This document shows, one piece after another, positions 3,630 to 5,065 of a stretch of 31,281 bases of DNA. Numbering within the stretch: position 1 is the stretch's first letter; every line of letters starts with the position of its first letter. The position numbers and the translations under genes were made by a program. The notes under the pieces are model-generated. The model did no database searches, was not told the DNA's origin, and saw only the letters and a list, made by a program, of their open reading frames with translations. Source of the stretch: Anaerolineae bacterium (GTDB taxonomy: Bacteria > Chloroflexota > Anaerolineae > Anaerolineales > E44-bin32); assembly GCA_030673735.1 (NCBI GenBank), contig DAOVIK010000001.1, positions 1 through 31,281 on the forward strand, in the 5' to 3' direction.

Positions 3630-4639
3630 CCGCGCTCCAATAGTCTCCCTGAGCCGGGCGCTTCAAGAGAACCGTTCTCCCGAAACCAAGTCAGAGTATC
3701 CTCCAATGTGTTCTCAATTGGACGCGGCTGATACCCCAACTCACGTGTCGCCTTTGCGTGGCTTGCATTGGGATTAGCGCGCAGCGCTTGCAGCGAGGCC
3801 CGCGAGTAGAGCGCGCGGTTAACACCCATTCGGAAAAGCAATGGGGAAAGAGGTAGCGCAAGGGTTGCCAACCACATCGGCGCGACGAAGCGAGGACTCG
3901 GCACAGCACAGAACTGCTCAACAATCCTGGCAATCTCCTTTATCGATATCCAGTGGCCGGACAGCAGATACCTTGAACCTGAAGGCGCCTTCTCCTCGGC
4001 TTGCAGCGCCCCCAGACTCACGTCCCTTGCATCCACCCAATCAAATCCTCCGACCACGAGCGCCGGCAGCTTGCGCCGCGCCAAGGCGAGCAATACCTCG
4101 CCAAAGTGTGATGGTTTGTAGTCGTGGGGACCGATAATGCCTGTCGGGTTGAGAATAACGGCATCCAGGCCCGAGTCCATTCCGCGCCGCACCTCTAACT
4201 CCGACATGGCTTTCGAAACATCATAGGGCAGCGCATCTCCCCAATCGACGAGAGGACGCAACTCGTCGATCGCTTGATCCATCGGCTCGTTCTGCAAAGC
4301 ATGGACTGAACTCACATGGACTAGCCGCCGAACGCCCTGCCCCAAGCAGGCGTTGACGACATTCCTCGTTCCCTCCACATTGATCGCCTTCATGCGCGGC
4401 CAATCCTCATCGCGCAAGGAAATGAAAACCGCCAGATGATAGACAATCTCACATCCAGCGCAGGCTTCTTCCATCGAGGCGGGGCTGCTCACATCGCCTT
4501 GGAAGATCTCAAGATTGAGTCCTTGGAGGGCGCGGCGGTCACGATAAACCAGCGCGCGCACGGATCGCCCTTGGGCAAGCAGCGCGCGCACCAGGTTGGC
4601 GCCAAGATGTCCTGCGGCGCCAGTTACGAGGACGGTCAT
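3626..4639 (-). CDS. Extended SDR, NAD-dependent epimerase/dehydratase family (HpnA/DFR/3beta-HSD-like)
   Basis: MTVLVTGAAGHLG Rossmann motif, VHVSS catalytic Ser, YDVSK (YxxxK); 337 aa from ATG 4639. Confidence 0.88.
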   Translation of the reverse strand: MTVLVTGAAGHLGANLVRALLAQGRSVRALVYRDRRALQGLNLEIFQGDVSSPASMEEACAGCEIVYHLAVFISLRDEDWPRMKAINVEGTRNVVNACLGQGVRRLVHVSSVHALQNEPMDQAIDELRPLVDWGDALPYDVSKAMSELEVRRGMDSGLDAVILNPTGIIGPHDYKPSHFGEVLLALARRKLPALVVGGFDWVDARDVSLGALQAEEKAPSGSRYLLSGHWISIKEIARIVEQFCAVPSPRFVAPMWLATLALPLSPLLFRMGVNRALYSRASLQALRANPNASHAKATRELGYQPRPIENTLEDTLTWFRENGSLEAPGSGRLLERG

Positions 4640-4719
4640 AATTCTTCCAGGAAGATTTCCTGCCCTGACCCTTGTGTCAAGGCTGATGAATAACCTGCGT
4701 ATTCTAGCCACATGATCGG

Positions 4720-4754
4720 AAAACACAAACCCACCGTCCGCAGCCAACGGTGGG
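4720..4754 (-). terminator. Intrinsic terminator closing the tRNA-Val transcript
   Basis: 8-bp stem CCCACCGT/ACGGTGGG (4730-4737 with 4747-4754), followed on the minus strand by TTTGTGTTTT. Confidence 0.7.
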
Positions 4755-4759
4755 CTTCT

Positions 4760-4900
4760 TGGCGGGCGCGGAGGGTATCGCCTGCCCTGGTGTTCGCTCA
4801 GGGAACCCCGTTCCAGCTGACGCCCGCCGGGGCGGCCGGCCCACGACCTTTTCGACCCCTTCAGGAGGCAGGGATGTGGATTCAACTGGAACCATCCCCC
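4760..4900 (-). ncRNA. Candidate tRNA-Val-derived structured RNA (unassigned)
   Basis: Colinear blocks shared with the adjacent tRNA (CAGTTG, CACATCC, AGGTCGTGGG, CCCTCCGCGCCC), GCCA end, and 11-, 10- and 8-bp crossing helices; see findings. Confidence 0.45.
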
Positions 4901-4928
4901 AATTAGTGCGGTGGCCTTAAAAACAGAG

Positions 4929-5002
<74 letters not shown>

Positions 5003-5012
5003 TTGTGATCGC

Positions 5013-5041
5013 ATTATAGCAGAGCCCCTAGGGCGGAACAA
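5013..5041 (-). promoter_or_regulatory. Sigma70 promoter of tRNA-Val
   Basis: TTGTTC-17 nt-TATAAT with extended -10 TG. Confidence 0.75.
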
Positions 5042-5065
5042 GATTCGCCTGCTCCGCTTTGTGTT

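Follow-up and report, generated by a model that had tools for sequence, protein, structure and literature searches.

The question raised by this locus is what kind of sequence separates a tRNA-Val gene from its terminator in the window, i.e., the whole 31,281-nucleotide (nt) stretch of Anaerolineae DNA analysed here. The element concerned comprises 141 nt (4760-4900, minus strand) downstream of tRNA-Val, and the initial annotation had read it as a tRNA-Val duplicate remodelled into a structured non-coding RNA (ncRNA) with three crossing helices, naming an att-site scar and a decayed tandem repeat like the tyrT trailers as duller alternatives. Here, the element is compared with the intact tRNA-Val gene, with the only other genome of the genus (G001; the window lies on contig C270 of its own genome, G000), and with 98 genomes of the bacterial family, in which homologues of the element interior were searched for. 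Taken together, the stretch is probably a non-functional tRNA-Val pseudo-copy that arose by DNA rearrangement at the tRNA-Val gene, decayed, and carries repeat insertions.

Locus organisation and tRNA-derived blocks

The only tRNA gene detected in the window by ARAGORN and Rfam is the intact tRNA-Val(CAC), whose 3' end is followed by CTC and not by CCA, meaning that CCA is not gene-encoded. The promoter-like sequence upstream of the gene is not called by a consensus promoter scan; it is kept in G001 and is similar to the promoter of a dispersed family of related genera described below. On the other side of the gene, the spacer holds AAGGCCACCG, which duplicates the terminator 5' arm (AAGCCCACCG), and a repeat search returns direct repeat D3 (4909-4918 vs 4748-4757, 10 nt, 90%). 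The terminator itself sits after the pseudo-copy, where it is the sole terminator-like site from tRNA-Val to the next gene, and it resembles the terminators following family copies in genomes G077 and G004 as well as the one following tRNA-Val in G001. Because the only terminator comes after the pseudo-copy, 4760-4900 is most likely co-transcribed passively with tRNA-Val as a 3' trailer. The features of the locus are as follows, in the order in which they are met on the minus strand.

5013-5042, minus strand: promoter-like CTTGTT, 18 nt, TATAAT upstream of tRNA-Val, inferred by reading
4928-5002, minus strand: intact tRNA-Val(CAC), identified by ARAGORN and the Rfam tRNA model (70.2 bits)
4901-4927, minus strand: 27-nt spacer 3' of the intact tRNA, holding the terminator-arm copy
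4879-4900, minus strand: 5' part of the pseudo-copy, GGGGGATGGTTCCAGTTGAATC, with weak likeness to the tRNA 5' half (CAGTTG)
4872-4878, minus strand: CACATCC, anticodon and start of the 3' anticodon stem (direct repeat D4; alignment A3)
4850-4871, minus strand: insertion 1, 22 nt in place of GTG (alignment A3)
4840-4849, minus strand: AGGTCGTGGG, variable loop and T-stem 5' strand (direct repeat D2, 100%)
4806-4839, minus strand: insertion 2, 34 nt, degenerate copy of the palindrome CCGTTCGCCCCGGCGGGCGCCGGCCCGAACGGGG (85% identity to the G053/G057 copies)
4781-4803, minus strand: insertion 3, 23-nt hairpin CCCTG...CAGGGCAGG, after the TT of the T loop (G004/G077 copies)
4760-4780, minus strand: rest of the T loop, 3' T stem, acceptor 3' strand, G73 and CCA (direct repeat D1; G001 comparison)
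4727-4757, minus strand: intrinsic terminator, 12-bp stem and T run (terminator scan)

The tRNA-Val blocks stand in the element in the same order as in the gene, and all sequence facts given for them by the initial annotation hold on the minus strand. CAGTTG occupies positions 13-18 in tRNA-Val and in the element alike, CACATCC lies at 4878-4872, the variable-loop and T-stem block at 4849-4840, and CCCTCCGCGCCC at 4775-4764, followed by GCCA at 4763-4760 where the tRNA gene has CTC. The repeat search gives colinear direct repeats of 17 nt (88%), 10 nt (100%), and 10 nt (90%). Two expansions claimed earlier are likewise present: the T loop is replaced by 64 nt between GTGGG and CCCTC, and 22 nt separate CACATCC from AGGTC, compared with 3 nt in the tRNA. 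Since homologues of the element exist, the tRNA-derived blocks are beyond chance and represent true homology. The tRNA-Val gene probably once ended in the last of these blocks, 4760-4780. The 5' part, 4879-4900, is more ambiguous, as it also bears a weak likeness to the module 3' end of the dispersed family (GGGGTTCCAG in G057), whose hidden Markov model (HMM) has no match in G000.

None of this amounts to a tRNA. ARAGORN finds no tRNA in the element nor in any copy in relatives, and the Rfam tRNA model has no match in 4760-4900 even at E-values up to 10. The acceptor stem is not formed, with GGGGGAT at the 5' end unpaired with CGCGCCC at the 3' end, and the T loop is interrupted by 57 nt, leaving no 7-nt T loop.

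Crossing helices and folding of the element

For a tRNA-Val duplicate with three crossing helices, the initial annotation suggested a role as a tRNA mimic or processing element, or else as a ribozyme-like trailer. The helices exist: an inverted-repeat search finds helix i as 11 nt at 91% and helix iii as 8 nt at 100%, and inspection by eye shows helix ii, which has one bulge. The three do cross each other. Yet they do not rise above chance, as two contiguous stems of at least 8 bp are observed against a mean of 3.1 in 1000 dinucleotide shuffles, and the probability of a longest stem of at least 11 bp in the same shuffles is 0.16. The minimum free energy (MFE) of the element is -63 kcal/mol and that of dinucleotide shuffles -63.25 kcal/mol, a z-score of 0.06; with a z-score of 0.23 for the opposite strand, no thermodynamic signal is seen on either. 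Among the homologues, folding z-scores are +0.49 for G077 and -0.40 for G057, and the single value of -2.82 is explained by an intact insertion 2 palindrome.

Comparison among homologues bears on the same proposal from both sides. By eye in alignment A3, helix i is missing in the G004 and G053 homologues and partial in that of G057, in which two of its pairs are broken. One compensatory pair each is found in helices i and ii, and few homologues share all inserts; the pair in helix ii is a T-A to C-G exchange relative to the G077 copy. Helix iii carries one uncompensated change, 4763 C>A, found in a related strain from a marine-sediment study. The window DNA occurs in cold-seep metagenomes, and the related strain covers 4616-4847 with seven differences, within which, for this one strain, the element is no better conserved than its flank. 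The DNA contigs of this comparison break at the tRNA-like repeat near 4847, and the RNA runs match no more of the stretch than a tRNA-sized share.

More favourable to a functional RNA is the 3' end of insertion 2, where three substitutions relative to the family consensus (CGGCCCGAAC to CAGCTGGAAC) each add a pair to helix i, and the G-U pair of helix i, which would be a C-A mismatch on the opposite strand. The segments involved are 4810-4820 and 4882-4892, where each of the three insertion 2 differences creates a base pair with the upstream GTTCCAGTTGA. Pure decay does not account for the changes in either helix i or helix ii, but the comparisons behind this are post hoc and draw on just one or two sequences; for those raising helix i pairing, hairpin-templated mutation or selection could both be the explanation.

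The element also retains CCA and belongs to the transcription unit of tRNA-Val, and its T-arm-like and acceptor-like 3' end with CCA recalls tRNA-like ncRNAs such as tmRNA and YrlA. Unlike these, it has no Rfam or ARAGORN match (no Rfam family is matched at gathering thresholds or even at E-values up to 10), no acceptor stem, no conserved fold, and no counterpart in the sister genome, where the syntenic site lacks it. A metagenome scan with the junction of insertion 2, TT, and insertion 3 returned only a near-identical copy of the G004 locus and no close relatives of the element, and a contig scan with a 15-mer gave chance matches only, mostly to Streptomyces. With chance-level helices, inserts that are independent and shared piecemeal across genera, and an uncompensated break in helix iii, a functional structured RNA at this site is highly improbable. 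What stands of the earlier interpretation is an insert-expanded, tRNA-Val-derived sequence between the tRNA and the only terminator-like site; the structured functional ncRNA is unsupported, and the duller alternatives of an att-type scar or a decayed tyrT-like tandem repeat fit better.

Empty site in the sister genome and proposed rearrangement at tRNA-Val

In the only other genome of the genus, the site is empty: in G001, the tRNA-Val gene with its promoter leads directly into CCA and a terminator, the next gene is the one found downstream in the window, and the element is absent between the same flanks. By eye, the 3' flank of the element (CCAAGAAGCCCACCGTT) reads like the G001 flank (CCAGGAATCCCATCGTT) and unlike the flank of the intact tRNA. 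Given this likeness, the 3' end of the element, i.e., CCA together with the terminator, seems to be the original end of tRNA-Val. In the window, the intact tRNA is followed downstream by a same-orientation repeat of its 3' part, with D1, D2, and D4 colinear, and the three insert lengths explain exactly why the repeats are spaced 166, 109, and 90 nt apart.

From this layout, we infer the order of events and the mode of insertion as follows. Approximately 166 nt would have been inserted or duplicated inside the tRNA-Val gene, the upstream part of the inserted DNA giving a new 3' portion that left tRNA-Val intact and with no encoded CCA. The old 3' portion, encoded CCA and terminator included, would have moved downstream. 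Integration into a tRNA gene, with a regenerated target and a displaced fragment, would give this geometry, and a short tandem duplication would give it equally. Carrying three short insertions, the displaced part would since have decayed, and the resulting pseudo-copy is most likely transcribed passively behind tRNA-Val, as a 3' trailer that would be removed by trimming.

A regenerated target with a displaced fragment is the signature of integration into tRNA genes described in the Islander paper (PMC4383910). Like the displaced tRNA fragments at the attL/attR sites of genomic islands treated there, the locus shows an intact tRNA followed by a same-orientation 3' repeat, an original flank, and an empty site. 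It is unlike them in that about 50 nt lie between the copies, no integrase is nearby, and the fragment is split by three inserts; furthermore, the 5' part of the element may extend past the usual anticodon-loop or T-loop crossover. With so short a distance between the regenerated tRNA and the displaced fragment, any former island is now gone. Neither an integrase nor a transposase is found beside the element, and the two PF00589 matches of G000 lie on contigs C265 and C146, not on the window contig C270. The module-bearing contigs of five relatives, described below, hold no integrase. An integrase 2.3 kb upstream of the real tRNA-Val gene in G054 was rejected as a link, being on the wrong side for a 3'-end island.

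Three other genera contain comparable arrangements. In G019, G021, and probably G047, an intact tRNA-Val(CAC) is followed by a partial copy of the tRNA-Val 3' part, and the partial copies of G019 and G021 carry their own terminator-like hairpin. The loci concerned (L246, L247, and L251) carry, with the same reservation for G047, a second copy running from the T loop to the 3' end, with its flank, within 60-110 nt of tRNA-Val(CAC). Judged from these arrangements, tRNA-Val(CAC) seems to have been rearranged repeatedly within this bacterial family.

A rival origin would be a simple in-situ tandem duplication of the whole tRNA-Val gene as a unit of about 100 nt, followed by decay and by purely local growth of the inserts through slippage or hairpin-templated mutation, with no mobile or integrative element involved. 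The element without its inserts does align to almost the whole tRNA, with CAGTTG in the same position, the duplicated unit takes in part of the terminator arm, and the exact fit between repeat spacings and insert lengths speaks for this origin. However, the inserts are homologous in both sequence and position to inserts in other genera, which a purely local origin cannot explain, and we consider this account very unlikely.

In the trailer of Escherichia coli tyrT, the 3'-terminal segment of the tRNA, including CCA, is repeated downstream and co-transcribed. The present locus is similar in repeating a tRNA 3' segment with CCA downstream of the tRNA gene, and differs in having a single decayed copy, interrupted by unrelated inserts, instead of a tandem array.

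Repeat insertions and a dispersed tRNA-derived family in related genera

Bearing on the nature of the inserts is their distribution among relatives. In alignment A3, insertions 1-3 behave as independent modules that are combined differently among copies. Insertion 1 has the same site and length as an insert in G077, with related inserts in G079 (L057), G061 (L058), and G085 (L191). Insertion 2 is common to G004, G053, and G057, and insertion 3 to G077, G004, and a tRNA-Pro-type copy in G055. Insertion 3 also occurs in reverse orientation in G099, and the G069 copy has none of the three. The palindrome of insertion 2 has 7-bp inverted termini (CCGTTCG/CGAACGG), which are eroded in the window copy. 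At least four different tRNA-like 3' parts (T stems GTGGG, GTAGG, GTCGG, and GCAGG) carry it precisely where the 5' T-stem strand would meet TTCGA, and it is also nested inside unrelated palindromes. This nesting, the reuse of the units, and the reversed occurrence of insertion 3 fit short DNA-level repeats and not helices grown by a structured RNA. The insert identity of 74-85% across genera would require either site-specific mobile repeats or long retention, and the latter would hint at constraint.

Two further readings of insertion 2 were discarded. Its excision from 13 tRNA-like 3' parts yields no tRNA detectable by ARAGORN, contrary to an intact tRNA with an intron-like insert, and an exact match to the insertion 2 end on G000 contig C106 is a chance match within a coding P-loop region. 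A palindrome of about 34 nt (CCGTTCG...CGAACGGGG) is seen at the same T-arm position in L229-L231, L237, L238, L064, L225-L228, and L232-L236, and its placement suggests a mini-element with a T-arm target preference.

Small palindromic repeats occur in Chloroflexi and can lie inside genes (PMC3733652). Similar to the REPs, MITEs, and Rickettsia palindromic elements treated in the same paper, insertion 2 is a short dispersed hairpin inside other sequences, insertion 3 is found in either orientation, and GTAG-type hairpins occur in the family module. In the relatives, and only there, insertion 2 occurs as multiple dispersed copies bounded by terminal inverted repeats, its exact ends being found 6-12 times per genome; in G000, there is no further copy. 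Unlike REP-type repeats, it does not reach hundreds of copies, it prefers fixed tRNA-like T-arm positions, it has no linked RAYT or Y1 transposase, and none of the repeats is active or present elsewhere in G000. The Y1 transposase family PF01797 is found in 55 of the 98 genomes of the bacterial family and is absent from both G000 and G001. A REPtron-like association found no support, as the module motif is absent from the six best Y1 loci and a genome has no more than 1-8 GTAG hairpins. In L215 (G081, contig C103), a gene recognised by eye as an IS3-family-like transposase OrfA lies just past the hairpin repeats that follow tRNA-Pro(CGG).

Beyond the inserts, the search uncovered a low-copy dispersed family in many genera of the bacterial family. 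Its unit combines a sigma-70-like promoter with a roughly 170-nt module, a 3' part from either tRNA-Val(CAC) or tRNA-Pro(CGG), and a terminator; examples are L038 (1501-1751, minus strand), L039-L059, and L188-L224. The tRNA-Pro(CGG) version is the exact native 3' part, and the two tRNAs have the anticodon stem and variable loop in common. The module, an imperfect palindrome, is put together from an anticodon-arm-like motif (CCACACGG / CCGTGAGG) repeated in both direct and inverted orientation. Each genome holds 1-8 family copies, often truncated, between ordinary chromosomal genes, with ordinary metabolic genes as neighbours. In the copies, no upstream GGGCGCG acceptor strand is found, save for one GGGCGTG about 570 nt upstream in L006. 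Neither a homology search nor the family HMM finds a module anywhere in G000, and the window therefore holds at most the tail of a family unit.

These units could be genuine ncRNA genes with a tRNA-like 3' domain, and the window element a dead paralogue, truncated at its 5' side and joined to the end of tRNA-Val. Between genera, module identity is 73-90%, with the promoter conserved and terminators present, the mean MFE z-score of the family is -2.1 on the forward strand vs -1.6 on the reverse strand, a rod-like fold is common to the individual MFE structures, and several U-G pairs would be A-C mismatches on the opposite strand. On the other hand, RNAalifold on 28 gappy rows gives almost no consensus structure, and the rod-like consensus obtained with ViennaRNA from the 20 best rows has pair counts, and hence covariation, not above shuffle controls. 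Seven canonical members have no Rfam match at E-values up to 1, many copies are truncated or decayed with their 3' parts swapped, and no tRNA acceptor stem is formed. The real tRNA-Val and tRNA-Pro genes are, moreover, trailed by the same hairpin units as those of the module, and G000 lacks the module altogether. On balance, a genuine ncRNA gene family of this kind, with the window element as its dead paralogue, is unlikely.

Several loci show further features around the modules. A decayed 3' part of tRNA-Met(CAT) lies in reverse orientation to the left of most modules (L044, L222; L237), and some of these remnants carry a CACC...GGTG palindrome in the anticodon loop, between CTCA and TAAC. 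In L032 (4253-10100; contig C1 of G054, 114455-120275), a module and its tRNA-Val 3' part stand 5.7 kb apart. The intervening segment holds a NiFe-hydrogenase operon and a methyltransferase, is flanked by a 12-bp direct repeat, GGGTTCACATCC, corresponding to the anticodon loop, and contains no integrase. In L220 (1388-9691; contig C42 of G085), three same-strand module copies lie within 8 kb in a cassette-like arrangement, two of them directly downstream of a same-strand gene (a P-type ATPase and a sulfatase, respectively) and the third with a Fic gene and a CoA-ligase gene around it.

It could be speculated that the dispersed family is an undescribed system of which the window element is a dead copy, producing RNAs of about 250 nt with a tRNA-3'-half tail or acting by site-specific recombination at anticodon-arm-like sites. 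The direct repeats of G054 and the single genes preceding the modules of G085 would point to the recombination form, and in either form the mini-palindromes would target fixed T-arm positions. Such a system, with a dead copy in the window, is rather improbable.

A tRNA-Val pseudo-copy left by rearrangement and marked by repeat insertions thus remains the preferred reading of 4760-4900. Read in this way, the element is a fossil of a tRNA-gene rearrangement and mainly a warning of how easily crossing helices turn up in GC-rich tRNA debris. While the window element itself matters little, the wider repeat pattern in several genera may deserve separate study, as the dispersed family and the T-arm palindromes would bear on how mini-elements choose their targets and on how tRNA genes seed repeats.
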